Below, in pieces: positions 11,701-61,969 of a stretch of DNA of 64,000 nucleotides (its first letter is position 1; every line of letters starts with the position of its first letter). Position numbers and translations under genes: made by a program. Where the stretch lies: contig JAKITS010000001.1 in the NCBI GenBank assembly GCA_021648085.1, forward strand, positions 196,948 to 260,947. Direction: 5' to 3'. Source of the DNA: Candidatus Magasanikiibacteriota bacterium. Lineage in GTDB: Bacteria > Patescibacteriota > Patescibacteriia > Magasanikbacterales > UBA922. The notes under the pieces were generated by a model. It did no database searches. It was not told the origin of the DNA and was given only the letters and a program-made list of their open reading frames with translations.

Positions 11701-12000
11701 TTCCTTTTTCTGTCATTTTGAATCAAAGCGGGGCTTGCCTGCCAGCAAGAATCCCTTAAACATTGATTTAAAAACATTCTTTTTTAACCATAACATCAAA
11801 ATGTTCTCACTTTACCTTTTGACACCAAGATGTAACCAAAAGTGCCGAACGGTTGATAATTTACGGCTTAATTTTTTATAAAGATTTATTTAACTCACCA
11901 CAGTTCGCTAAATTCGTTATTTTCTGTATTCTCAGAAAACCATAAATCTTTATAAAAAATTAGTCCAAAAATTTCAAATGTTCGGGAGGTTAGGGGGAAA
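11701..12000. repeat. dispersed intergenic repeat, family B, copy 2 (about 300 bp, long form)
   Basis: Aligns to 2371-2545 over its first about 175 bp and to 33015-33325 over its full length (including aaaaaattagtccaa...aaatttcaaatgttcgggaggtt..gggg tail). Confidence 0.8.
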
Positions 12001-32234: not shown

Positions 32235-32298
32235 GTAGAAGTTCCAAATGTTCGAATTGTTTTCCACTTCTCTTGTTCTAAATGGTAGAATTTTTAAT

Positions 32299-32352
32299 CA
32301 CGTCATCCTGAGCGAAATGGAGCAAAGCGGAATGAAGTCGAATGGATCCCCT
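32299..32352. repeat. REP-like family A unit
   Basis: cgtcatcctgagcgaaatggagcaaagcggaatgaagtcgaatggatcccc. Confidence 0.8.
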
Positions 32353-32449
32353 AATTTGACTCACCAAAATATAAATAATTAAATCAAAGTAATGTTTCCA
32401 TTTTCTTTTCTTAACTTTAAACCTTAAGAACTTTATAACTTTTACAAAT

Positions 32450-33013
32450 ATGTTTAGTGAAATAATATACAATGCAATAAAAAAAACCACTCTTCTTCAT
32501 GAAGGGCAAACTAGAAAAGATCTGGAGAAGACTCCATATATTTCGCATTTGGTAGGTGTTGCTCTAATTTTGTCGCAATATACTTCGGACGAAGATATTA
32601 TAATTGCTGGCTTGCTTCACGATACAATAGAGGATACAAGCTACACGCCAGAAGATTTGGAGCGAGATTTTGGTAAAAAAATAAAAGATATCGTAATGGG
32701 TGTGACAGAGGATAAAAATATAAAAAACTGGAAAGAGAGAAAGCAGAATTATCTGGACAATTTGAAAACTGCTCCTGAAGAAAGTTTGCTGGTTGCTACC
32801 GCAGACAAGATTCACAATATGACCTCACTTTCAATTGATTTTAGAGGGCTAGATGAAGGTGTTTTAAAAAAGTTTAGTTCAAATGTACAAGAAAGAATTT
32901 GGTTTCATGAAGAGGTTTTGAAAATATTAGAAAATAGTACGCAAAATAAAATCATAGAAGAATATAAAAAAGTTTTTAATAAGTCTAAAGAAAAATTTAT
33001 TACATCATCTTGA
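32450..33013 (+). CDS. HD-domain (p)ppGpp hydrolase, small alarmone hydrolase (SpoT/Mesh1-like)
   Basis: YISHLVGVALIL..DEDIIIAGLLHDTIEDT..DFGKKIKDIVMGVT matches the SpoT/RelA hydrolase HD motif. Confidence 0.75.
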   Translation: MFSEIIYNAIKKTTLLHEGQTRKDLEKTPYISHLVGVALILSQYTSDEDIIIAGLLHDTIEDTSYTPEDLERDFGKKIKDIVMGVTEDKNIKNWKERKQNYLDNLKTAPEESLLVATADKIHNMTSLSIDFRGLDEGVLKKFSSNVQERIWFHEEVLKILENSTQNKIIEEYKKVFNKSKEKFITSS

Positions 33014-33014
33014 G

Positions 33015-33325
33015 TTTCTTCTGTCATTTCGAACCAAAGTGAGAAATCTCTTAAACATTGATTCAAACACACTCTCTTTTAACGATAATACTAAAATATT
33101 CTTACTTTACCTTTTGACACCAAAAGGTAACCAAAAGTGCCGAACGGTTGACAATTTTAGGCTTAATTTTATATAAACATTTATTTTGCTCGCCGCAATT
33201 CGCTACACTCGCAATCCTTTTGTATACTCAAAAGGACCGTAAATATTTATAAAAAATTAGTCCAACCAGCCTATCCAGCAGGCAGGAAATTTCAAATGTT
33301 GGGGAGGTTTAGGAGGGGAAAAAGA
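33015..33325. repeat. dispersed intergenic repeat, family B, copy 3 (long form)
   Basis: Full-length alignment to 11701-12000; begins 2 nt after the stop of the HD gene. Confidence 0.8.
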
Positions 33326-33333
33326 GAATAATC

Positions 33334-33380
33334 ACGTCATATTGAGCGAAGCAAAGCGAAGTCGAAATATCCCCGTACAT
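33334..33380. repeat. REP-like family A unit
   Basis: cgtcatattgagcgaagcaaagcgaagtcgaaatatccccgtaca (exact reverse complement of the 21271-type arm). Confidence 0.8.
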
Positions 33381-33475
33381 TATCATCAAAATATAAATAA
33401 TCAAAATAAAATATTTGCCCTTTTTTACTTTATAAACTTTACGAACTTTTAACTTTAAAAACTAATATTAATTTT

Positions 33476-33739
33476 ATGCCAAAAAAAACAAAACAAAAAA
33501 TAAGTAAAAAATTGCAAAAAGAAATAAAGTCTAATTTTGTAAAATATATTGGAGCTGGTTTTGGACTTGTTGCCTCGTTTGCTTGGAACGACGCTATAAA
33601 ATCACTAATTGAAGCTGTATTCCCAGTAAGCGGTCAATATGTGTGGGCAAAATTCGCTTATGCTGTCGTTATGACTTTGGTTGTTGTTGTGCTTATGGTT
33701 TACATTGTGAGAATTTTAAAAGTTGAAGAAGAAAAATAA
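33476..33739 (+). CDS. small membrane protein
   Basis: 87 aa, K-rich N-terminus, two TM helices. Confidence 0.5.
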   Translation: MPKKTKQKISKKLQKEIKSNFVKYIGAGFGLVASFAWNDAIKSLIEAVFPVSGQYVWAKFAYAVVMTLVVVVLMVYIVRILKVEEEK

Positions 33740-33755
33740 ATATATATTTTCTTTA

Positions 33756-33796
33756 TGTCATCCTGAGCGGAGCAGAGCGAAGTCGAATGGATCTTG
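33756..33796. repeat. REP-like family A unit
   Basis: gtcatcctgagcggagcagagcgaagtcgaatggatc. Confidence 0.8.
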
Positions 33797-33837
33797 CAAT
33801 AAAATCACTAAAATATTGAATTAAGTAATTTTTTTAA

Positions 33838-34578: not shown

Positions 34579-34595
34579 AATAAATTTATTTTATT

Positions 34596-35291
34596 ATGCA
34601 TATTTTTCTGGATGAAAGTGGACAATTTCATAAAAACGATTCAGAGGACTATTTTGTAATAGGCTCTTTTACTGTTGGGGATCACAAAAGAACCAAAAAA
34701 AGATTTAAATCTTGGTCTAAAGATAAATTTCCTAAAAAAATAAGATTTAGACCTGAAATAAAGTTTTCTGATTCTGGTATTTCTGATGAATTAAGAATTA
34801 AAACAGTTAAATTTATTTCTAAGTTAGATGTTAGGATTCGTTTTTCTTTTTTGAAAAGGCAAAATATACCAGAAGAATACAAAAGAAAAGAGAAAATTCA
34901 AACGGGCTTACTTTATACAAAAATAGTTGCAGAAACATTGGAAATGTATACTTCTTCTGCAAGTGATCTATTATTTCATGTTTTTTGTGATCAAAGAAAA
35001 TTAAAAGGTGTAAGTAAGAAAGAATTTGTAAATAACATAAAAATTCATTTATTACCTAGTTTGCCAAGCGGTGCAAATATTAAAATAGAAAGAGTTAATT
35101 CAAGAGATTTTCCAAATGTTCAATTAGCAGACTGGATTGTTGGTGTTATAGCATCTTATTTAAATAAAAAACCGTTAGGAGAGGAATTATTTGGTATTTT
35201 GCAAAATAATATTCTTGCTGAAGGAAGAGAAATGTTTAAAGATTATTGGGAAAATAAATTTAACAACCAAAAAACTCAATCGGGGGATTGA
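34596..35291 (+). CDS. DUF3800 family protein
   Basis: MHIFLDESG N-terminus and ..VQLADWIVG.. C-terminal motif characteristic of DUF3800. Confidence 0.6.
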   Translation: MHIFLDESGQFHKNDSEDYFVIGSFTVGDHKRTKKRFKSWSKDKFPKKIRFRPEIKFSDSGISDELRIKTVKFISKLDVRIRFSFLKRQNIPEEYKRKEKIQTGLLYTKIVAETLEMYTSSASDLLFHVFCDQRKLKGVSKKEFVNNIKIHLLPSLPSGANIKIERVNSRDFPNVQLADWIVGVIASYLNKKPLGEELFGILQNNILAEGREMFKDYWENKFNNQKTQSGD

Positions 35292-35557
35292 GGTGTTTGG
35301 TGAAGTAGCGTCTAACATTATGGTATTCCTTAGCTTAAGTCTCAGATGGTCTGAGGGAATACTAAGGCATAAATGAAAGTTATTATTGCATACTTCAATT
35401 TCAATATACTACAATGTCGTGCATTTGTCAAAGTTATCCACAGTTTTAAGTATAATTATAAAAATAAAACAACTTATAAATAAAAAATATTGGAATTAAA
35501 ATTTTCAATATTTTTGCTTTTAAGGTAAAGTAGAAGAACATTTTAAATAAAAATTTT

Positions 35558-38500
35558 ATGGGTGGTGAATATAACAATTTAGTTTTGGAGTATCTTAATA
35601 ATGTTCAAAAGATATTAGATACTGGAGATGCACGTGAGCATACTTATAGATCTGATTTCAAGATATTGATTGAAAGTTTAGTTTCAAATATTCAGGCAAT
35701 AAATGAGCCAGCCTATACAGGTGGAAATGCGCCTGATTTTTTGTTTAAAAAAGGTGATACACCAATTGCTTATGCAGAGTGCAAGGATGTGACGGTAGAT
35801 ATAAAAAATACAGATACACAAAAACAGGCAAAACGTTATGCAGATGCTTTTGGGAAAATTTTACTTACAAATTATTATGATTTTCAATTTATTCCAGAAG
35901 AGGGAGAAAAAATATCTGTTTCAATTGCGGTAAAAGAGGAAAATAAAATTGTACCAACAGAAGAAAATTTTGATAAATTCGTAAATTTGATTCAGGATTA
36001 TATAACTCCGTCTTATAGAACAATTAAATCTGCAAAAAGATTGGCAGAAATAATGGCAAGTAAAGCGCGGATTATTCGTGACAATGCTTTGGCTTCACTT
36101 AGTGAAAATAAAGACTCAGACATTTTTGCTCAATACGAATCATTTAAACAAGTTCTTATTCGTGATCTTTCGGAAAATGAGTTTGCGGATATGTATGCTC
36201 AAACTCTTGTTTATGGGTTGTTTGTGGCTCGTTATTATGATAAAACAGAGAAAGATTTTTCTCGTCACGAAGCTCAAGATTTATTACCTTCATCCAATCC
36301 ACTTTTGAAAAAGTTTTTTGGACATGTGGCTGGCACAGATTATGATCCCAAAATTGCGTGGTTGGTAGATAGTTTGATAGAAACTTATTCGTCTACAAGT
36401 GTAGCATATATAATGCACAAAGAGTTTGAGAAAAAACAAAAAGATCCTGTTCTTCATTTTTATGAAACTTTTTTGACTAGTTATGACAAAGGACTTCGTA
36501 AAAAAAGAGGAGTGTATTATACGCCCGAGCCGGTAGTTTCTTTTATTGTTCGTAGTGTGGACCAGATTTTAAAAACTAAATTTGGTTTAAGTAAAGGACT
36601 TGCTGATACCACAAAAATAGAATATAAAGCCAAAGTTCAAGGAGAAGATGGTAGAACAAAAGATAACGTAAAAAGGATAATAAAACAAACATATAAAGTA
36701 CAAATTCTAGATCCTGCGGTAGGAACTGGTACATTTTTAAATGAAGTAATTCATGAAATACACAAAAAATTTGTTGGACAAGAAGGTCAGTGGGATTCTT
36801 ATGTTCGAGATAGCTTACTTTCGCGTTTGCACGGTTTTGAGCTGATGATGGCAAGTTATACTATGGCTCACCTTAAACTTGGGATTACGCTAAAAGAACT
36901 TGGTTATAAAGGAGATGAAAGGCTGTCTGTATGGCTTACTAATAGCTTAGAAGGTGCAATAGATAAAATACCCGATCTTTTTATGGGGCAATGGCTAACA
37001 AAAGAATCAAACCAAGCTTCAAAAATTAAATCTGAAATGCCAATTATGGTTGTGTTGGGTAATCCTCCTTATTCTGGTGAAAGTTCTAATAAAAATTATA
37101 AAGGACATAATGTTTATAAAGTAGAACCGGGAGGGAATCAAAAACTTCAAGAGCGAAATTCGAAATGGCTTAACGATGATTATGTAAAATTTATTCGTTT
37201 TGCTGAAAATCAAATAGAAAAAACGGGAGAAGGAATTGTAAGCTTTATCACACCTCATGGATATTTAGATAATCCAACTTTCAGAGGTATGCGTTGGCAT
37301 TTAATGGAAACTTTTAGTGAAATTTATGTTTTAGATTTGCATGGGAATGCAAATAAAAACGAGACAACTTCTGAAGGAGGAAAAGATGAAAATGTCTTTG
37401 GAATTAAAACAGGAACTTCTATAATTTTTGCAATAAAAAATAAAAATTCAAAAAACAAAACTGCAAAAGTTTACCATGCTGATTTTTATGGAAAACAAAA
37501 TAAAAAATATAATTTATTAAATGAAAATAATTGGGAATCTATAAAATGGAAAAAATTATCTCCAAATAAACCAAATCTTTATTTTATACCGTTTAATAAC
37601 GAGTTGAAAAAAGAATATAATGAAGGTTTTTCAATTGTAGATTTAATGGAAACAAATTCAGTAGGTATTGTGACTTCTCGCGATAAATTTATTATCAATA
37701 ATTCAAGAGAAAAACTTATAATTAAAATAAAAGATTTTTTAATGCTTGATCCTGATAAAGCAAAACAAAAATATAATTTACGAGAAAACCAAAACTGGAA
37801 AATTATAAAGGCACAAAAACATATTTTTGATGAAAAAAATCTTCAAAAAATTTCCTATCGCCCGTTTGATAATAGGTGGATATATTATCATAATGATTTT
37901 ATCGAGCGTTCTAGAAAAGAAACAATGAAACATTTTAATAATAAAAATAATGTAGGATTAGTTTTGTGTAGGCAGGTTAAAGCTGGTAAATCATATCAAC
38001 ATAATTTTATAACTAACAATATTACAGAATCAACATTGGTTTCTAATAAAACATCAGAAATTGGATATGTATTTCCTTTATATTCTTATGTAAATGATAG
38101 CATCAAAAATTATAATTTTAACATAGACATAATAGGAGAAATTAAAAATAAAGTTGGAGCCACTTTAGTATCACGTAGTTCAAATAATCCAACTCTACAA
38201 ATTACTGATGGTAGTATTTTTACACCAGAAAATATTTTGGATTATATTTATGCAGTTCTTCATTCTCCAAAATATCGTGAAAAATACAAAGAATTTTTGA
38301 AAATAGATTTCCCCCGTGTTCCATATCCAGAAAATAAGCAAAAATTTTGGAATTTAGTTGGGTTAGGAAAAGAATTGAGAGAATTGCATTTATTAGAATC
38401 TCCAAAAGTTTCAAATTTTATCACAACTTTCCCAGAAAGTGGTTCAAATAAAGTTGAAAAGAAATATCCAAAATACGAAGATGAAAAAGTATTTATAAAT

Positions 38501-38692
38501 TATACTCAATATTTTGGCAATGTTCCAGAAGTTGCCTGGAACTTCTACATCGGCGGATACCAACCAGCCCAAAAATGGCTCAAAGACCGCCGAGAACGAG
38601 AACTAAGCAATGAAGACATAGATCACTACCAAGAAATGATAGTCTCCCTAACCGAAACCCACCGAATTATGCAGGAAATTGATAAAGTTTAA
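35558..38692 (+). CDS. Type IIL/IIG restriction-modification enzyme (MmeI-like; fused PD-ExK nuclease, N6-adenine methyltransferase and specificity domain)
   Basis: N-terminal D..ExK (NAPDFLFKKGDTPIAYAECKD), AdoMet motif I ILDPAVGTGTFL, motif IV VLGNPPYSG, about 400-aa C-terminal target-recognition region; no helicase domain. Confidence 0.75.
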   Translation: MGGEYNNLVLEYLNNVQKILDTGDAREHTYRSDFKILIESLVSNIQAINEPAYTGGNAPDFLFKKGDTPIAYAECKDVTVDIKNTDTQKQAKRYADAFGKILLTNYYDFQFIPEEGEKISVSIAVKEENKIVPTEENFDKFVNLIQDYITPSYRTIKSAKRLAEIMASKARIIRDNALASLSENKDSDIFAQYESFKQVLIRDLSENEFADMYAQTLVYGLFVARYYDKTEKDFSRHEAQDLLPSSNPLLKKFFGHVAGTDYDPKIAWLVDSLIETYSSTSVAYIMHKEFEKKQKDPVLHFYETFLTSYDKGLRKKRGVYYTPEPVVSFIVRSVDQILKTKFGLSKGLADTTKIEYKAKVQGEDGRTKDNVKRIIKQTYKVQILDPAVGTGTFLNEVIHEIHKKFVGQEGQWDSYVRDSLLSRLHGFELMMASYTMAHLKLGITLKELGYKGDERLSVWLTNSLEGAIDKIPDLFMGQWLTKESNQASKIKSEMPIMVVLGNPPYSGESSNKNYKGHNVYKVEPGGNQKLQERNSKWLNDDYVKFIRFAENQIEKTGEGIVSFITPHGYLDNPTFRGMRWHLMETFSEIYVLDLHGNANKNETTSEGGKDENVFGIKTGTSIIFAIKNKNSKNKTAKVYHADFYGKQNKKYNLLNENNWESIKWKKLSPNKPNLYFIPFNNELKKEYNEGFSIVDLMETNSVGIVTSRDKFIINNSREKLIIKIKDFLMLDPDKAKQKYNLRENQNWKIIKAQKHIFDEKNLQKISYRPFDNRWIYYHNDFIERSRKETMKHFNNKNNVGLVLCRQVKAGKSYQHNFITNNITESTLVSNKTSEIGYVFPLYSYVNDSIKNYNFNIDIIGEIKNKVGATLVSRSSNNPTLQITDGSIFTPENILDYIYAVLHSPKYREKYKEFLKIDFPRVPYPENKQKFWNLVGLGKELRELHLLESPKVSNFITTFPESGSNKVEKKYPKYEDEKVFINYTQYFGNVPEVAWNFYIGGYQPAQKWLKDRRERELSNEDIDHYQEMIVSLTETHRIMQEIDKV

Positions 38693-39317
38693 AATTGATA
38701 TGAAAAAAGAATTATATTATTTTCCTAATTGGGTTATAATTGACTATCTCTCCCATATTACTTCTAATAAAATACAAGATACTGATAATATTGAAATGAT
38801 ATGTTCTTTGGTCATGTCTAAATTTTGTGAAAGGCAATTTGGAAAAGAATGTTTTATAGGATTTGAGGTAAAGGAAAGTTATAAAAGAAAATTACCAAAA
38901 GATAATCTTATGTCTGAGCAAGATTTTATCAATCTTATAAAAGATGGTTTTTTTAAAGATACTCCAATAGATTTTTCTATTGCAATTCCTTCTAAAAAAG
39001 GCAGAATTGATTTTCAATTAAAAAGATTTGGGAAATCTTTAAAACAAAATAATACTAATGATTTAATTAATTATATTAACGACCTTTCAAAAGAATATGG
39101 AGATACTGATTGTAATTTAATAATACTCTGTGAATCTTGTGAAGTGAGTCCATTGACTGTATCTCAAAAAATTTGTATTAAAAATTACCCATTTAAAAAA
39201 ATAATTTTAATAGATGTGGAGGGGTCAAAATATATTTATTATCATGGTATATGGTCAGATAAGGGGGAAAGTGGAACATCAAGATTTAATATGCAAACGA
39301 TGAAATTTGATTATTAA
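38679..39317 (+). CDS. hypothetical protein, co-operonic with the RM enzyme
   Basis: 212 aa; start overlaps RM stop by 14 nt (alternative Met 38700); no recognised motif (weak D..EVK possibility). Confidence 0.5.
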   Translation: MIKFKIDMKKELYYFPNWVIIDYLSHITSNKIQDTDNIEMICSLVMSKFCERQFGKECFIGFEVKESYKRKLPKDNLMSEQDFINLIKDGFFKDTPIDFSIAIPSKKGRIDFQLKRFGKSLKQNNTNDLINYINDLSKEYGDTDCNLIILCESCEVSPLTVSQKICIKNYPFKKIILIDVEGSKYIYYHGIWSDKGESGTSRFNMQTMKFDY

Positions 39318-39332
39318 GGTTTTTTAAATAAT

Positions 39333-40067
39333 ATGAAATGTAGACTATGTAAAAAAGACAAAAGTTTAATAAAAGCACATATCATACCTAAAACTTTTTA
39401 TGATTTTCTTTATCCGTCAGATGATAATAGTTCTTTAATAATGGTTAGGAAAAATAAACATATTAAAAGAAGACCAGTTGGAAGTTATGACATGAATATA
39501 TTGTGTAAAGATTGCGATAGTGATCTTGGTTTATATGATGAATATGGTAAAAAAGTTTTTTTAGAAAAAAAATTAGAAAAACATCCACAGACTGAAAGCG
39601 CGTTTATAATTAGAGATGTGGATTATGAAAAATTAAGTTTTTTCATAATTTCCTTATTGTGGAGAGCTGGTATATCTTCTTTGGATGAGTATGGGTTTGT
39701 TCAATTAAATAAATATGAGGAAATATTGAGGGACATAATCTATAATAAAAAATATAAAAAGTTAATAGATTATCCGTTTATTATTACTCAATTTGAAAAA
39801 GATGGTTTAGATGGGATTGTGGATAAAAGTTTTCTTAATCCAGTTAAGTTATATATGGATAAAAGACGTTTTTATCTTTTTTATTTACCAAATTGTTATA
39901 GTATTTATATTAAAGTTGATAAACAAAAAATGCAAAGTAGTTTTTCAAAAATAGCTTTTAAAAAAGATGGTAATTTATTTATAATTAATAGGGGAAAGTA
40001 TAAAAACTCTAAAGAATTTAAATTAATTGTGGATATAGTTAAATCTGGATTTACGCCACAAACATAG
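39333..40067 (+). CDS. HNH-family endonuclease domain protein with about 180-aa C-terminal domain
   Basis: CRLCKKDKSLIKAHIIPK ... NILCKDCDSDLG = CxxC..H(I)IP..N..LCxxC HNH zinc-finger pattern; 15 nt after preceding gene. Confidence 0.6.
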   Translation: MKCRLCKKDKSLIKAHIIPKTFYDFLYPSDDNSSLIMVRKNKHIKRRPVGSYDMNILCKDCDSDLGLYDEYGKKVFLEKKLEKHPQTESAFIIRDVDYEKLSFFIISLLWRAGISSLDEYGFVQLNKYEEILRDIIYNKKYKKLIDYPFIITQFEKDGLDGIVDKSFLNPVKLYMDKRRFYLFYLPNCYSIYIKVDKQKMQSSFSKIAFKKDGNLFIINRGKYKNSKEFKLIVDIVKSGFTPQT

Positions 40068-40202
40068 AATTGATTAAAAAATATGAATACAACAATAATA
40101 CAATCAGCACCAAATCAATATAATATAATGTTAATGAATTACGCAGAAATTGTTGAAAAGACTAATTAGCAATTAAGTTTTTGGTTTAATCCTTATGCTA
40201 TT

Positions 40203-40676
40203 ATGGTAGCTGTTTTGGCTGTACTGTTTACTATTGGAGCGATTATTGCTGCGATTATTATTCATCTAAATAATAAAAAGCACAAACAGAGGACGGAAGA
40301 CTTTTTTAAAGAACAAGAGATAATTTATAAAAAAAGACAAGAAGAGATTAAAAAAGATTTTGATATTTTAATTAAAGTAAAAGAAAAAGAATATAGAAAA
40401 GCAGAAAAAAAAGACAGAAAAGAAATAAAAAAAGAAATTATAGAATTGAAGAAAGATAAAATATCCATAGGTTTTTATAGGATACCCGAAGCCGTGGAAG
40501 ATAGCATTAATAATATTAGAAGTAAATATGGAGTTGGATATAGAATTTGTAAAACTAAATGTTTTGGCTGTAAAGAAAATTTTCAATATAAAGATGAAAC
40601 AATAAACAATATTGTACAGGTGGTAGGGAGTAAAAAAGTTTTCTGTCCTTATTGTGGGGCTGAAAATTTTATATAA
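40203..40676 (+). CDS. membrane-anchored coiled-coil protein with C-terminal zinc ribbon
   Basis: N-terminal TM, K/E-rich coiled coil, CKTKCFGC..x20..CPYCG. Confidence 0.5.
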   Translation: MVAVLAVLFTIGAIIAAIIIHLNNKKHKQRTEDFFKEQEIIYKKRQEEIKKDFDILIKVKEKEYRKAEKKDRKEIKKEIIELKKDKISIGFYRIPEAVEDSINNIRSKYGVGYRICKTKCFGCKENFQYKDETINNIVQVVGSKKVFCPYCGAENFI

Positions 40677-40689
40677 TTTTTAAAAAGCA

Positions 40690-40717
40690 AAAGACAAGTC
40701 TTTTAAAACTTGTCTTT
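40690..40717. terminator. bidirectional rho-independent terminator
   Basis: aaagacaagt-cttttaaaa-cttgtcttt. Confidence 0.7.
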
Positions 40718-40725
40718 ATGCTTGT

Positions 40726-40869
40726 CTACTTTTTCTGTTTCTTTTTTGGTGCACGCTGTGACATTGCACTTCCTGCTGCTGTTTTAGAATGTTTACTTGT
40801 TCTTTTATCTCTAAGAACTTTGCTTGCAGCTTTGCCAGCTTTTTTGCTGGTTTTTCTGTTTTTTGCCAT
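40726..40869 (-). CDS. small lysine-rich basic protein (47 aa), not in ORF track
   Basis: Reverse-strand ATG 40867-40869 to TAG 40726-40728: MAKNRKTSKKAGKAASKVLRDKRTSKHSKTAAGSAMSQRAPKKKQKK; followed by terminator hairpin. Confidence 0.45.
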   Translation of the reverse strand: MAKNRKTSKKAGKAASKVLRDKRTSKHSKTAAGSAMSQRAPKKKQKK

Positions 40870-41022
40870 AATCTTTGTATTACAGATTAATAAAACTACC
40901 ATTTCAACTTTTAAGCATATTTTTTATGTATCCACGACAAACATAAAAAAGTGCAATAGTAATGATTTTAGTATATAAAGGATTGGTTTAAATGTCAAGA
41001 AAAATAAGACTTACTTAATTAT

Positions 41023-41049
41023 TGACAAAATAATATTTTATGGTATAAT
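41023..41049 (+). promoter_or_regulatory. putative sigma-70 promoter of lexA-like gene
   Basis: TTGACA(41023-41028)-15/16 bp-TATAAT(41044-41049). Confidence 0.4.
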
Positions 41050-41078
41050 AAAGATAATAAATAATTTGAAGTAGAAAT

Positions 41079-41849
41079 ATGCACCATCTTCAAGAAAAAA
41101 TTCTCAATCTTTTGGAAACAAAAGATATTTCTGGTTTATCACTTAGAGAAATTGCCAAATTGATAAACGAAACAGGAAGTCCGCAAAAAATAAAACATCA
41201 TTTGGATCAGCTCGCAAAAAGAGGGCTTATTTTTGTGGACAAAAAAAATAAAGAAATTAAAAAAATAAAACCCGGAATGGACAAAAAAACTCAAATTATT
41301 TCTTTGCCTATTTTGGGAAGTGCAAATTGTGGTGTAGCGACATATTTTGCAGAAAATCATGTAGAAGGATATTTGAAAGTGACCAAAAATATTTTGGGCG
41401 AACTTGCCAAAAGAATCGAAAGCTTGTTTGTGTTACGTGCAGTTGGCTCTTCTATGAATCGTGCTAATATTCGTGGAAATAGTATTGAAGATGGAGATTA
41501 TGTGATTGTGGATAGTGAAAAAAAAGAGCTAGAAAGTGGTTTATATATGGTTTCTATTATTAATGATGTCGCAAATATAAAAAAAGTTTTTTTTGACAAA
41601 AAAAATAGGCAAATAGTTTTAATGTCTGAGTCAAACCAAGATATTACACCAATATATATACACAAAAAAGATTTAAATGAATATTTAATTGCTGGAACTG
41701 TGGTAAAAATTATGAAAAATCCCACAGAAGAAAATTTAAATATGTTTAGCGATATTTCTGCAATTGATTCTTTAAAAAATCTAGGTTCTTTGTCCAGTGA
41801 GGAAGAATCTTATTATAATAATGCTGATAATTTTAAGAAATATGCGTAA
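41079..41849 (+). CDS. LexA-like repressor (winged-helix DNA-binding domain + S24 peptidase domain)
   Basis: N-terminus LSLREIAKLINETGSPQKIKHHLDQLAKRGLIF resembles LexA DNA-binding domain; C-terminal AVGSSM..DGDYVIV..IKKV matches the S24 Ser/Lys dyad region; acidic C-terminal tail. Confidence 0.65.
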   Translation: MHHLQEKILNLLETKDISGLSLREIAKLINETGSPQKIKHHLDQLAKRGLIFVDKKNKEIKKIKPGMDKKTQIISLPILGSANCGVATYFAENHVEGYLKVTKNILGELAKRIESLFVLRAVGSSMNRANIRGNSIEDGDYVIVDSEKKELESGLYMVSIINDVANIKKVFFDKKNRQIVLMSESNQDITPIYIHKKDLNEYLIAGTVVKIMKNPTEENLNMFSDISAIDSLKNLGSLSSEEESYYNNADNFKKYA

Positions 41850-42195
41850 TCCGGATTTGAAACAAGGTGATATTTATTTAGTTGATTTTAGTGAAAATTC
41901 AGTTGGGCATGAGTATCAGAAAAAACGTCCTGCAATTATTATTCAATCAAATTTACAAATAAAAAAGTCAAATCTTGTGACAATTATGCCATTATCTACA
42001 AAATTGGATAAAGCTTTAAAAGAAGATATTTTGGTTGAAAAAGATAATAATAATTTATTATTACATGATTCTGTGATAAAAGTGCAACATATTATTTCTT
42101 TTGATCCTGTTAGATTTTCTCATAAAATTGGAGAGGTAAAAAAAGAAGTTCTTAGTGAAATTAAGAACTATTTAACCAAACACTTTGATTTGTAA
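41842..42195 (+). CDS. MazF/PemK family toxin (endoribonuclease)
   Basis: MRNPDLKQGDIYLVDFSENSVGHEYQKKRPAIIIQSN..VTIMPLSTK classic PemK/MazF signature; ORF track start 41797 but Met at 41842 overlaps the lexA-like stop by 8 nt (ATGCGTAA). Confidence 0.7.
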   Translation: MRNPDLKQGDIYLVDFSENSVGHEYQKKRPAIIIQSNLQIKKSNLVTIMPLSTKLDKALKEDILVEKDNNNLLLHDSVIKVQHIISFDPVRFSHKIGEVKKEVLSEIKNYLTKHFDL

Positions 42196-42199
42196 ACTC

Positions 42200-42913
42200 T
42201 TAAATAGGAGCAAAGAAAGTTTTCACCTGCCCAAAATTAGGCCTGCTATTTGGTGAAACTCGCTCGTATAGAAAGTGGGGGATGCCGATGTCGGCGATGA
42301 AGATTTTTCCACTTTTTGATTTTGCTTTGTTTTTGGTAAATGCTTTTTTTGGTAGTGCTAGGCTAAGTGTGGCATAAGCGCGAATGTGTGGCTCAAAGCA
42401 TTCTCCGGTGGTTGGGTCTATTCCAGTTGGAATGTCGTAGCAAATGACATTCTTTTTTGTTTTATTTATCATTTCTATTATTTTGGCAAAGTTATCACGC
42501 GGTGCACCTTTCAAATTGTACCCAATCAAGGCGTCTATAATTAGTGTGCTAGAGTTTATTAATTTTTCTATTTCATCTTGCTTTTCCAAATTTTTGACTG
42601 TCAAAATATTTGCGTCTATTTTTTGTAATAAATCTAAATGGTGTTTTGCTTGCGTTGTTATGTTTTTAGACATTAAAATAATGGATGTTCTAAATCCGTG
42701 ATTTAACAAATGCCGTGCTGCACATAAACCATTTCCACCTTTGTTGCCAGTACCACAAACTACAACAATATGAGATTTTTTGGAGATACTCATACTTGTG
42801 ATGAGTGGCAACATGTGCCAACCAGCCAGCTCCATCATCTGCATTACGCAAAGACCGTTTTCTACTGCGATCTTGTCTAAAAACTGCATTTCTTTCGCTG
42901 TGGCAAAATACAT
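42200..42913 (-). CDS. NAD(P)H-hydrate epimerase (YjeF N-terminal domain)
   Basis: VVVCGTGNKGGNGL motif; start trimmed to MYFATAKEMQFLD (ORF track 42991). Confidence 0.7.
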   Translation of the reverse strand: MYFATAKEMQFLDKIAVENGLCVMQMMELAGWHMLPLITSMSISKKSHIVVVCGTGNKGGNGLCAARHLLNHGFRTSIILMSKNITTQAKHHLDLLQKIDANILTVKNLEKQDEIEKLINSSTLIIDALIGYNLKGAPRDNFAKIIEMINKTKKNVICYDIPTGIDPTTGECFEPHIRAYATLSLALPKKAFTKNKAKSKSGKIFIADIGIPHFLYERVSPNSRPNFGQVKTFFAPI

Positions 42914-61543: not shown

Positions 61544-61564
61544 TGTCAATTATTTAAATTGACA
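61544..61564. promoter_or_regulatory. perfect 8-5-8 palindrome (TGTCAATT-attta-AATTGACA), candidate operator
   Basis: Seen directly; overlaps a TTGACA hexamer immediately upstream of the pentapeptide-repeat gene. Confidence 0.35.
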
Positions 61565-61576
61565 ATAGCTTTGGAG

Positions 61577-61969
61577 ATGAAAATGGCAGACGAGAGATTG
61601 GTTGAACGAATTTTTAAATTTGGTGGTGAAAAAATTATTGAAGAACACAGAAAAAACTCAGCACCTTCTATAATTATAGATTTAATGGGTGCAAAATTGG
61701 GAGGTGCAGATCTAAGAGGTACGGATTTGTCAGGAATATATTTGGTGGAAACAGATTTTGGACATGCAAATTTAGCCGGTGCAGACCTTTCAGACTCTTT
61801 TTTAGATCGTGCAGATTTTACTATGGCAAATTTAACCAATGTAAAAGTTGATCCTGCAAAACTTGCGGAATCACATTTTACTCAAGCTCGGATGAGCAAT
61901 AAACTTTTTAAGGATACTTTGCTTGCATTTGAAGAAATGCGTAAGCGCAGAGGTTTGAATAAGAAATAA
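61577..61969 (+). CDS. pentapeptide-repeat protein
   Basis: GADLRGTDLSGIYLVETDFGHANLAGADLSDSFLDRADFTMANLTNV; ORF track start 61559 is TTG; ATG at 61577 (MKMADER) preferred. Confidence 0.7.
   Translation: MKMADERLVERIFKFGGEKIIEEHRKNSAPSIIIDLMGAKLGGADLRGTDLSGIYLVETDFGHANLAGADLSDSFLDRADFTMANLTNVKVDPAKLAESHFTQARMSNKLFKDTLLAFEEMRKRRGLNKK

Follow-up and report, generated by a model that had tools for sequence, protein, structure and literature searches.

The 64,000-nt stretch of DNA analysed here (the window), from the genome of an uncultured member of the Patescibacteria, carries a 7.6-kb block at positions 34596–42195, between an alpha/beta hydrolase gene on its left and genes for a YjeF_N epimerase and then pgi on its right, and the question it raises is whether this block arrived as a single unit or was assembled from parts of different age. 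An earlier note had read it as one accessory island rich in defence-type genes. The gene content stands: a DUF3800 protein, a restriction-modification (RM) enzyme, two ORFs following it (app1 and app2), a zinc-ribbon protein, a basic ORF, a LexA-like repressor and a MazF toxin were all found, with matching coordinates, and the defence-type character of the block was upheld. Its unity fared less well. On balance, the evidence favours a mosaic defence island at a hot spot, in which newer cargo has joined an old backbone of RM and lexA-like/toxin genes. Such an island is in itself ordinary; the part of interest is the conserved RM, LexA-like and toxin arrangement.

Boundaries and composition of the block

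Both boundaries proposed in the earlier note proved to be synteny breaks, to the base, against the nearest relatives (77–90% amino-acid identity). The only three close relatives (L017, L001 and L016) match the window exactly as far as the hydrolase stop (34580) or the epimerase stop (42200), and past these junctions each relative has different accessory DNA: in L017 a 65-aa Cys-rich ORF and DUF2726 come after the hydrolase; the epimerase is followed in L001 by a 179-aa HExxH ORF and in L016 by the end of an IS (rve_3) transposase. The hydrolase–epimerase interval thus appears to be a hot spot of turnover, a claim that rests on two separate junctions; the sibling contigs all end within 0.1–0.9 kb of a junction, hydrolase and epimerase are never on one contig, and an empty site is seen in none of the relatives.

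The block also deviates in base composition, as the earlier note had proposed to check, with 28.0% GC where the rest has 32.8%; among 282 sliding windows of 7.6 kb it is the minimum. This deviation is unevenly distributed. The RM and LexA-like genes are near normal (GC z of −0.8 and −1.2), whereas the cargo genes are outliers, from −1.7 to −2.65 (DUF3800 −1.7, app1 −2.5, app2 −2.65), and the block is therefore split compositionally into backbone and cargo. No integrase, tRNA or direct-repeat border was found at the block.

Two kinds of repeat had been reported around the block. REP-like elements do exist at 33757 and 43064/43094, but they are not island markers: 11 copies occur at 7 intergenic sites across the window (0.23 expected by chance), and the three near the block bracket the hydrolase and epimerase, not the island itself. 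The copy at 33747–33835 is missing from the sibling contig L017. The ‘family-B’ repeat was confirmed and has three copies, scattered over the window (approximately 2414–2540, 11743–11916 and 33038–33211).

An old neighbourhood of RM, LexA-like and toxin genes

The LexA-like protein (41079–41849, + strand, 256 aa; PF00717, 2.1e-14) consists of a winged helix-turn-helix (wHTH), a linker with Cys84-Gly85, an S24 domain (Ser125, Lys168) and a conserved C-terminal tail (residues 215–256). Its family is Patescibacteria-wide, with 1833 homologues, and the best 120 listed share 50–65% identity over their full length, compared with 50–57% for the hydrolase and pgi. Since conservation of the LexA-like protein across Patescibacteria matches that of the housekeeping genes on either side, the block cannot readily be treated as one recent island. 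N83, C84, S125 and K168 are invariant in the family alignment, leaving the Ser/Lys dyad and the predicted Cys-Gly cleavage site intact. S125, K168 and C84-G85 align with S119, K156 and A84-G85 of E. coli LexA (GSSM with GMSM, NIKK with VKRL and ANCG with VAAG), and the combination of wHTH and S24 domains is that of LexA/SOS repressors (E. coli LexA, PDB 1JHH; S24 proteins, including UmuD). The protein differs from E. coli LexA in having Cys-Gly rather than Ala-Gly at this site, as in UmuD, and also in its extra tail of ~40 residues, its score below the NCBIfam LexA equivalog cut-off (TIGR00498, 72 bits against 110.95), the variable spacing of its candidate operator and the toxin-like gene that always follows it.

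In the window this next gene encodes a MazF/PemK endoribonuclease toxin (41842–42195, + strand, 117 aa; PF02452, 2.5e-23; phrog_1936, 1.3e-22), whose likely ATG at 41842 gives an 8-nt overlap with the lexA-like stop. No MazE-type antitoxin ORF is present, nor is there room for one on either side of mazF. In all nine independent contexts, a small and non-random sample selected by the length of the contigs, the gene directly after the lexA-like gene is toxin-like: MazF in seven (one degraded), GNAT in one, with a 4-nt overlap, and NERD in one. Pairwise identities of LexA and MazF are only moderately correlated (r = 0.49). From these sequences, LexA-like and MazF form a conserved operon. As in the MazEF/PemIK type II toxin–antitoxin systems, a PemK-fold toxin is translationally coupled to the gene of an upstream DNA-binding protein; unlike those systems, there is no MazE/AbrB- or RHH-type antitoxin, the upstream product being a 256-aa LexA-like protein predicted to cleave itself and elsewhere paired with GNAT or NERD genes.

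The RM enzyme (35558–38692, + strand, 1044 aa; Type_ISP_C, 7e-85; N6_Mtase; PADLOC REase_MTase_IIG, 1018 bits) is a single chain with PD...ExK near its N-terminus (APDF, residue 58; AECKD, 73), methyltransferase motifs I (DPAVGTGTF, 385) and IV (NPPY, 502) and a Type_ISP_C target-recognition domain at 695–1040. The methyltransferase and target-recognition regions match DrdV (7LO5, 2e-39) and the Type ISP enzymes LlaGI (4.3e-41) and LlaBIII; PD...ExK, NPPY and FxGxG-type motifs are shared with single-chain enzymes of the MmeI/DrdV type (Type IIL/IIG), to which class the enzyme is assigned. Type ISP identity was rejected because the helicase module is absent, although PGAP names such proteins Type ISP. 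Full-length homologues with 41–46% identity are found on plasmids, and the RM enzymes adjoining LexA-MazF in two other loci share 62% identity over 1047 aa (L018) and 43% (L030).

An RM system lies upstream of the lexA-like gene, on the same strand, in 6/7 informative contexts, as Type IIG in four (two unrelated kinds) and as a MutH-like nuclease with a C5 methylase in two. RM upstream of the lexA-like/toxin operon is thus a recurrent arrangement. In a second Magasanikbacteria species (L018), the RM enzyme (62% identity), LexA (62%), MazF (49%) and hydrolase (53%) are all adjacent; for comparison, at 14 pgi loci that are at least similarly divergent, none of the neighbours of pgi was kept. The RM enzyme is accordingly classed as an old resident, and the backbone as an old Patescibacterial neighbourhood of RM enzyme, variable cargo slot and lexA-like/toxin operon.

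That the whole of 34596–42195 is one recently acquired, strain-variable island is consequently improbable. It would fit the lowest GC in the window, the synteny breaks at both ends and the fact that every gene is of defence or mobile-element type, but it sits poorly with the linkage in L018, with a LexA-like protein at housekeeping-like identity, with near-normal GC in the RM and LexA-like genes and with the absence of an integrase, tRNA or direct-repeat border.

Predicted control of the operon

Back-to-back promoters lie upstream of the lexA-like gene (40970–41049), TTGACA-17-TATACT on the − strand (11/12 matches) and TTGACA-16-TATAAT with TG on the + strand (12/12), and their −35 boxes form an inverted pair, TGTCAA (40993) and TTGACA (41027). 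This pair is a candidate operator of the LexA-like protein. All nine independent lexA-like genes have TGTCAA-N(8–35)-TTGACA upstream, and it seldom occurs in other parts of the loci; its spacing varies, with the centres of the hexamers 11 to 39 bp apart, an unusual feature in an operator bound by a LexA dimer, and the upstream hexamer in the window doubles as an ordinary −35 box for the divergent promoter. An inverted repeat in the gene's own promoter suggests autoregulation, as for LexA.

These features are consistent with a scheme in which the LexA-like protein, as a self-cleaving S24 repressor, would bind the hexamers over the −35 boxes of its own and the divergent small-gene promoters, keep the coupled lexA-mazF operon low and perhaps also neutralise MazF directly. 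DNA damage, whether from the environment, phage or cuts by the neighbouring restriction enzyme, would lead to RecA-stimulated cleavage at Cys84-Gly85; with the repressor lost, MazF would accumulate or be freed, and growth would be arrested. The tail of ~35–40 residues is unchanged where GNAT or NERD takes the place of MazF, and this independence from toxin type speaks against the tail being a segment that neutralises one particular toxin and makes the direct-antitoxin version less convincing. Familiar toxin and checkpoint genes under SOS control are tisB, yafNO and sulA, and B. subtilis yneA, which is divergent from lexA. The proposed scheme resembles these in placing a growth-arrest effector under a damage-cleavable repressor, and in having a small gene divergent from lexA, and differs from them in that the effector is co-transcribed with, and overlaps, the lexA-like gene, in its conservation at the level of a phylum-sized group and in its RM linkage.

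Much of this evidence can be read in another way, which we hold to be possible if rather doubtful: the LexA-like protein may be the housekeeping SOS repressor of the lineage, located at a permissive hot spot where defence and toxin genes accumulate, with RM, LexA and MazF functionally unlinked and MazF an SOS-induced effector of growth arrest, controlled at transcription only, like SulA or YneA. A widespread, conserved family with intact catalytic residues, a tail indifferent to toxin type and a downstream slot holding unrelated MazF, GNAT and NERD genes would all be expected, as would the unrelated defence genes at the flanks in other genomes (GmrSD, PanA-type antitoxin, Phd/ParE, RhuM and Bro-N). 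A second TGTCAA-N9-TTGACA site, 20 kb away in front of a gene for a pentapeptide-repeat protein, moreover suggests a wider regulon. Against this, the start/stop overlaps of lexA-like and toxin genes in most contexts are the classic antitoxin–toxin layout, MazF without any antitoxin is unusual, and an upstream RM system in 6/7 contexts, of three different types, is poorly explained by descent alone. It is very unlikely that the block represents the remains of a prophage or integrative element with a cI/LexA-like repressor, MazF and the RM system as morons. PHROG matches exist for app2, the small basic protein, MazF (‘moron’) and the repressor, and Bro-N, RhuM or FtsK-like genes adjoin the lexA-mazF pair in other genomes; however, the block has no integrase, structural, replication or packaging genes, att-like repeats or tRNA, and when viral contigs were scanned with the LexA-like alignment, the matches were limited to short homologues of the DNA-binding domain, with no lexA-mazF pair.

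Cargo of the proposed mosaic island

Returning to the mosaic reading, the slot between the RM and lexA-like genes holds four genes. The earlier note's description of a Type IIL RM with ‘two appended genes’ holds in so far as the RM enzyme and both ORFs are there, tightly packed in the case of app1 and app2, but the ORFs are not RM partners elsewhere, and neither was found at any other lexA locus examined. App1 (38700–39317, + strand, 205 aa) belongs to an uncharacterised family of 101 representative clusters at E ≤ 1e-3, in which E32 is nearly invariant and D91, Q106 and K108 are invariant; the D...QxK pattern is possibly that of a PD-(D/E)xK-type nuclease. Pfam and PDB sequence searches gave no match for app1, and its AF2 model (pLDDT 89.7) no significant PDB fold match.

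App2 (39333–40067, + strand, 244 aa; phrog_19960, 3.7e-23) is from a rare uncharacterised family with 15 homologues only. Its N-terminus, CxxC...HIIP...CxxC, has invariant C3, H16, I17 and P19 and nearly invariant C6, C58 and C61, and appears HNH-like. The AF2 model (pLDDT 84.7) had no PDB fold match and one match to an uncharacterised phage protein (TM 0.69). Homologues adjoin SNF2/SF1 helicases in one locus (L036) and lie in an integron-like cassette array in another (L037), and app2 is counted as mobile cargo because of these unrelated defence-like and integron-like contexts.

The zinc-ribbon-like membrane protein (40203–40676, + strand, 157 aa), recognised by sequence features, has one transmembrane helix at the N-terminus, a middle part rich in Lys and Glu and a cluster of Cys residues at the C-terminus (C116, C120, C123, C148, C151); family searches gave sub-threshold matches only. 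A hairpin with a 12-bp stem (40690–40717) separates it from the convergent gene of the small basic protein (40726–40869, − strand, 47 aa from MAKNRK...; phrog_5079, 4.9e-15), and this hairpin with its trailing ATGCTTGTCTA is kept at the equivalent position in L018. The small basic gene is divergent from the lexA-like gene, and its slot holds DUF1508 or other small genes in three other loci (L018, L033 and L028). All four genes are regarded as lineage-specific cargo in the variable RM-lexA slot, app1 and app2 as putative nucleases.

Upstream of the RM gene, the DUF3800 gene (34596–35291, + strand, 231 aa; PF12686, 1.9e-11; PADLOC candidate PDC-M04A, 2.5e-9), classed as recent cargo, encodes an RNase H-like protein with the N-terminal DE (FLDESG, residue 4) and C-terminal QxxD (QLAD, residue 176) motifs described for DUF3800 proteins (PMC7736814). 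Unlike type VII retrons and CRISPR-associated accessory DUF3800 genes, it lies in a block without RT or Cas genes. Convergent with this ORF, and overlooked in the earlier note, is a DUF3800-V RNA (35301–35397, − strand; RF02964, 70.1 bits with the gathering score at 37.4, E = 8.6e-14, matching the whole model, 1–96), a structured small RNA that accompanies DUF3800 genes (Weinberg et al. 2017, PMC5737381). As in the gene–RNA pairs described there, the DE/QxxD protein adjoins the RNA, which is then followed by a terminator, here a hairpin and T-run (35275–35292, − strand) directly past the RNA 3′ end that also covers the last bases of the DUF3800 ORF. A consensus scan placed a promoter-like site, TTGACA-17-TATATT (35403–35431, − strand, 11/12 matches), ending 6 nt ahead of the RNA 5′ end, and the RNA is probably driven by this promoter of its own.

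Borders and composition of the block

The block from 34596 to 42195 lies between an alpha/beta hydrolase gene and a YjeF_N epimerase gene that is followed by pgi; the earlier note had put it forward as an accessory, defence-like island. All the genes listed there were found in place, and family searches agree: a DUF3800 gene (34596-35291, PF12686), a single-chain restriction-modification (RM) enzyme of 1044 aa (35558-38692), two tightly packed ORFs without family, app1 (38700-39317) and app2 (39333-40067), a transmembrane, coiled-coil and zinc-ribbon protein (40203-40676), a small basic protein (40726-40869, minus strand), a LexA-like S24 protein (41079-41849) and MazF (ATG at 41842). The hydrolase and three of the island proteins are 100% identical to Candidatus Magasanikbacteria MAG proteins. 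Within this low-GC (about 33%) Patescibacteria genome the block has 28.0% GC, against 32.8% in the rest of the window, the lowest value among 282 sliding 7.6-kb windows. The deviation is uneven: compared with the window's other 55 ORFs, z-scores run from -2.65 (app2), -2.5 (app1), -2.3 (MazF) and -2.0 (zinc-ribbon gene) through -1.7 (DUF3800) to -1.2 (LexA-like) and -0.8 (RM), the last two lying inside the normal spread.

Only three contigs of a sibling lineage, encoding proteins 77-90% identical to those of the window, were recoverable. Nucleotide homology to L017 (LemA, TPM, DUF5654, hydrolase) stops at 34580, the hydrolase stop, past which L017 carries a 65-aa Cys-rich ORF and a DUF2726 protein. 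Homology to L001 and L016 (VIT, pgi, epimerase) stops at 42200, the epimerase stop, past which lie a 179-aa HExxH ORF (L001) and the end of an rve_3 transposase (L016). Both proposed boundaries are exact synteny break points, with different DNA beyond them in each genome. An empty site, or hydrolase and epimerase on one contig, was found in none of the three sibling contigs, each of which ends 0.1-0.9 kb past a junction (L001 4467-5103, L016 4060-4194, L017 3871-4796), and it is here that the case for an island is weakest. Such endings are what one expects when the assembly of metagenomes fails at strain-variable DNA. A synteny search through pgi in GTDB genomes returned one close relative, on a 5-kb contig, and a metagenome scan with the epimerase one 4-kb contig; an exact look-up of the hydrolase gave no entry; pgi loci in 14 other GTDB genomes had no neighbour in common with the window. 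No integrase or transposase domain was found in the block and no tRNA in the window, and the block does not present the mobility signatures of integrase, tRNA target and direct repeats. A second indel relative to L017 lies about 1 kb to the left (32235-33480): absent from the sibling are a REP copy, an HD-domain gene (32450-33013), a ‘family-B’ repeat and another REP copy.

A conserved LexA-like protein coupled to a toxin gene

The island interpretation is supported only in part, by composition and by the breaks at both borders; what was observed in the block stands, and the LexA-like gene is, on comparative grounds, not accessory. Of its 1833 homologues, the best 120 are all 50-65% identical over their full length, nearly all 245-256 aa long and, wherever they bear a taxonomic name, from Patescibacteria; this range of identity is that of the hydrolase and pgi. 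The protein contains an S24 domain (PF00717, 2.1e-14), and among 22 diverse members S125, K168, N83 and C84 never vary, and G85 hardly does. In an alignment with E. coli LexA, its GSSM, NIKK and ANCG correspond to S119, K156 and the scissile bond A84-G85, giving the Ser/Lys dyad and the scissile X-Gly in the linker that characterise LexA. Its score against the LexA equivalog model is 72 bits, below the cut-off of 110.95 (TIGR00498), and PF01726 reached just 0.0073. The family also possesses a conserved tail of 35-40 residues extending past the end of E. coli LexA (PDE..D.LK.LGP.SK.E..YY.NL).

The start of mazF (PF02452, 2.5e-23; PemK/MazF fold) overlaps the lexA-like stop by 8 nt, and the epimerase stop follows 5 nt past the mazF stop. 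No MazE-type antitoxin gene was found beside mazF, lexA-like being the only adjacent gene. Nine independent genomic contexts of lexA-like genes were compared, seven of them with enough upstream DNA to be informative. Directly downstream, and usually overlapping, lay MazF (7/9), a GNAT acetyltransferase (1/9; L033, 10738-11166, 4-nt overlap) or a NERD protein (1/9; L034, 10774-11523). An RM system on the same strand lay upstream in 6/7 informative contexts. The enzyme is Type IIG in the window, in the group of L018, from another Magasanikbacteria species (62% identity over 1047 aa), in L030 (43%) and in L028, where it is of an unrelated kind (Eco57I/TaqI_C); a MutH-like nuclease with a C5 methylase takes its place in L033, as does the same pair with Vsr in L034. 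The remaining informative context, L035, had no RM within 10 kb and a degraded MazF. The other two, both followed by MazF, are uninformative upstream: the contig of the L022 group begins 135 nt before the gene, and L025-27 offer at most 1.1 kb.

The stretch from RM to lexA differs in every genome. It holds app1, app2, the zinc-ribbon gene and the minus-strand small basic gene in the window, a minus-strand DUF1508 gene in both the L018 group and L033, a minus-strand 101-aa gene in L028, a 195-aa gene with two FtsK-like and two small genes in L030, and a PanA-type pair and DUF2779, among others, in L034. In L018, RM, LexA (62%), MazF (49%) and hydrolase (53%) are contiguous, a linkage that stands out because the neighbours of pgi were retained in 0/14 loci of similar or greater divergence. 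The backbone, as judged from these contexts, is RM, a slot for cargo and the lexA-like/toxin operon. In this genome the cargo is divided: DUF3800 with its RNA lies upstream of RM, and the slot holds app1, app2, the zinc-ribbon gene and the small basic gene.

A scan of viral contigs found no lexA-mazF pair, the sole matches being homologues of the DNA-binding domain only. One such protein, of 86 aa (3351-3611 of L038, an IMG/VR contig of 31% GC), is homologous to residues 1-80 of the LexA-like protein, as far as the ‘ISLPI’ linker, is without an S24 domain and is followed by a DNA methylase gene; relatives of 76 aa occur on L039 and L040. It could be an uncleavable mimic of the repressor.

The restriction-modification enzyme

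The RM enzyme matches Type_ISP_C (7e-85), N6_Mtase and MmeI_Mtase, and PADLOC assigns it to REase_MTase_IIG with 1018 bits. A PD...ExK nuclease motif (residues 58-77), the gamma-class N6-adenine methyltransferase motif NPPY (at 502) and a TRD lie on one polypeptide, as in MmeI/DrdV-like enzymes. The methyltransferase-TRD part matches LlaGI, DrdV (7LO5, 2e-39) and LlaBIII. However, the Type ISP enzymes LlaGI and LlaBIII have an SF2 helicase-like ATPase between nuclease and methyltransferase and are 1406-1578 aa long, whereas the 1044-aa window enzyme gave no helicase domain match and aligns with them in the methyltransferase-TRD part only. Possession of PD...ExK and NPPY without a helicase places it in Type IIG/IIL, the class originally proposed, and by its motifs the enzyme is of a known kind. 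Plasmids carry full-length homologues at 41-46% identity. No motif common to the sequences upstream of RM genes was found.

Cargo genes and the DUF3800-associated RNA

The designation of app1 and app2 as genes ‘appended’ to RM does not hold: both are absent beside the orthologous RMs of L018 and L030 and are found elsewhere in unrelated contexts, which rules out their being RM subunits. The app1 family comprises about 100 representative clusters, in which E32 is nearly invariant and D91, Q106 and K108 are invariant; app2 is rare (15 homologues), its CxxC/H/CxxC positions being invariant or nearly so. AF2 models were confident (pLDDT 89.7 for app1, 84.7 for app2) and neither has a solved structural relative, sequence, profile and fold searches of the PDB having returned nothing significant; in BFVD, one uncharacterised phage protein matches app2 (TM 0.69). 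Nuclease roles for the two are guesses from their motifs, and weak HNH Pfam matches, below threshold, were not taken as evidence. Homologues of app2 adjoin SNF2/SF1 helicases or sit in an integron-like cassette array. In the latter case (Thalassotalea atypica chromosome, L037, 8001-8750) the homologue lies amid a long array of small, uncharacterised same-strand ORFs that adjoins an integrase fragment and looks like a chromosomal integron cassette array.

A terminator hairpin, with ‘ATGCTTGTCTA’ after it, is kept in both the window (40690-40730) and L018 (9535-9570). The gene beside it differs, being the small minus-strand basic protein in the one and DUF1508 in the other; the two proteins have no similarity, and homology between them was rejected. 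This arrangement suggests gene replacement in a fixed slot beside the conserved hairpin.

The cargo also includes a feature missing from the earlier note: a full-length DUF3800-V RNA (Rfam RF02964; 70.1 bits, gathering score 37.4) lies on the minus strand at 35301-35397, convergent with the DUF3800 gene and 10 nt past its stop. A TTGACA-17-TATATT promoter (11/12 matches) ends 6 nt 5′ of the RNA (minus-strand unit 35301-35431) and a hairpin with a T-run, a terminator, lies 3′ of it, so that the RNA appears to be transcribed independently. RNA motifs of the DUF3800 type have been described as functionally uncharacterised elements that accompany DUF3800 genes (PMC5737381), and the pairing of protein and RNA holds at this locus. 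DUF3800 proteins are RNase H-like, recurring in retron type VII and beside CRISPR effectors; that of the window has both the DE and the QxxD motifs.

A candidate operator

Near-consensus promoters precede all nine lexA-like genes, that of the window being TTGACA-16-TATAAT with an extended TG (12/12 matches). In each case a TGTCAA hexamer precedes the -35 box by 11-39 bp, measured between centres, and the two form an inverted pair, TGTCAA...TTGACA, which across 37 loci was seen at all lexA-like promoters but that of L035, where the -35 box reads TTAACA, and at only four places elsewhere. We infer that the pair may be the operator of the LexA-like protein; the spacing of the hexamer varies, and a plain promoter is the alternative. 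In the window, the upstream hexamer doubles as the -35 box of a divergent promoter (11/12) for the small basic gene. The pair occurs twice in the window against 0.26 expected, the second site being a perfect TGTCAA-N9-TTGACA (61544-61564) just before a pentapeptide-repeat (Qnr/MfpA-like) gene (61583-61969). The sharing of half-sites with the lexA-like promoter hints at a small regulon.

Possible functions of the module

The comparison shows an S24 repressor-type protein, catalytically intact as judged by its residues, to be conserved with a translationally coupled gene of toxin type. On the most likely reading, the LexA-like protein would repress its own operon and cleave itself upon a DNA-damage signal, after which MazF would rise or be released and growth would halt. 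Gene order and overlap fit the LexA-like protein as antitoxin, and it may, on the same grounds, also neutralise MazF by binding. The conserved tail was considered as a MazF-specific binding segment, a proposal weakened by its being unchanged where GNAT or NERD replaces MazF: failing to covary with toxin type, it is probably not a toxin-specific neutraliser. A functional link with RM is suggested solely by their recurrent adjacency; through such a link, restriction might generate the damage signal, or the toxin might serve as a further defence behind it.

The genomes of Patescibacteria (CPR) are tiny and for the most part without CRISPR, and restriction systems are believed to be their mainstay. 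A wider reading, which we consider unlikely, would have a two-layer defence throughout Patescibacteria, with RM as the first line and the LexA-like protein as a damage-cleavable switch. DNA breaks or phage replication would produce the RecA signal, the repressor would cut itself at Cys-Gly, and the co-transcribed MazF (elsewhere GNAT or NERD), derepressed or freed, would stop the cell in abortive infection; some phages would counter this by encoding just the repressor's DNA-binding domain in uncleavable form, as with the 86-aa protein of L038. If true, this would be a new form of toxin control, with an S24 autoprotease in the antitoxin position.

Every component is of known class (Type IIG RM, DUF3800 with its RNA, MazF, S24 LexA-like repressor), and there is nothing unusual about a defence island at a hot spot; the worth of the locus lies in the conserved RM/LexA-like/toxin module and its uncharacterised cargo, not in the island itself. 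A conserved arrangement of RM, slot and LexA-like/toxin operon would suggest that a large uncultured group ties its response to DNA damage, in a simple and widespread way, to growth arrest or defence, and would, if so, provide a concrete candidate for a new control of MazF-type toxins. Uncharacterised defence genes might be sought in the slot between RM and lexA and around the DUF3800 protein/RNA pair. The Patescibacteria SOS network was reportedly studied by Sanchez-Osuna et al. in 2017. In the literature searched, no paper connected LexA/S24 with MazF operons or with toxins of Patescibacteria, and none described a lexA-like/toxin operon that spans a phylum, has an additional conserved tail and is associated with RM systems; an earlier description may exist.

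Repeats

Two REP-like elements had been cited as flanking the island. Within the window the motif (GTCATCCTGAGCG...) occurs 11 times, spread over 7 intergenic sites, where 0.23 copies are expected, the copy at 33747-33835 is missing in L017, and the cited pair flanks the hydrolase and epimerase rather than the island, ruling out a role as its borders; the REP-like elements are a genome-wide repeat. The ‘family-B’ repeat has three dispersed copies. Exact DnaA-box 9-mers (TTATCCACA) number five in the window (5482, 18406, 35434, 39818 and 44135) against 0.70 expected; one occupies the promoter spacer of the DUF3800-V RNA, and TGTGGATAA also adjoins the lexA-like promoters of L025 and L030.
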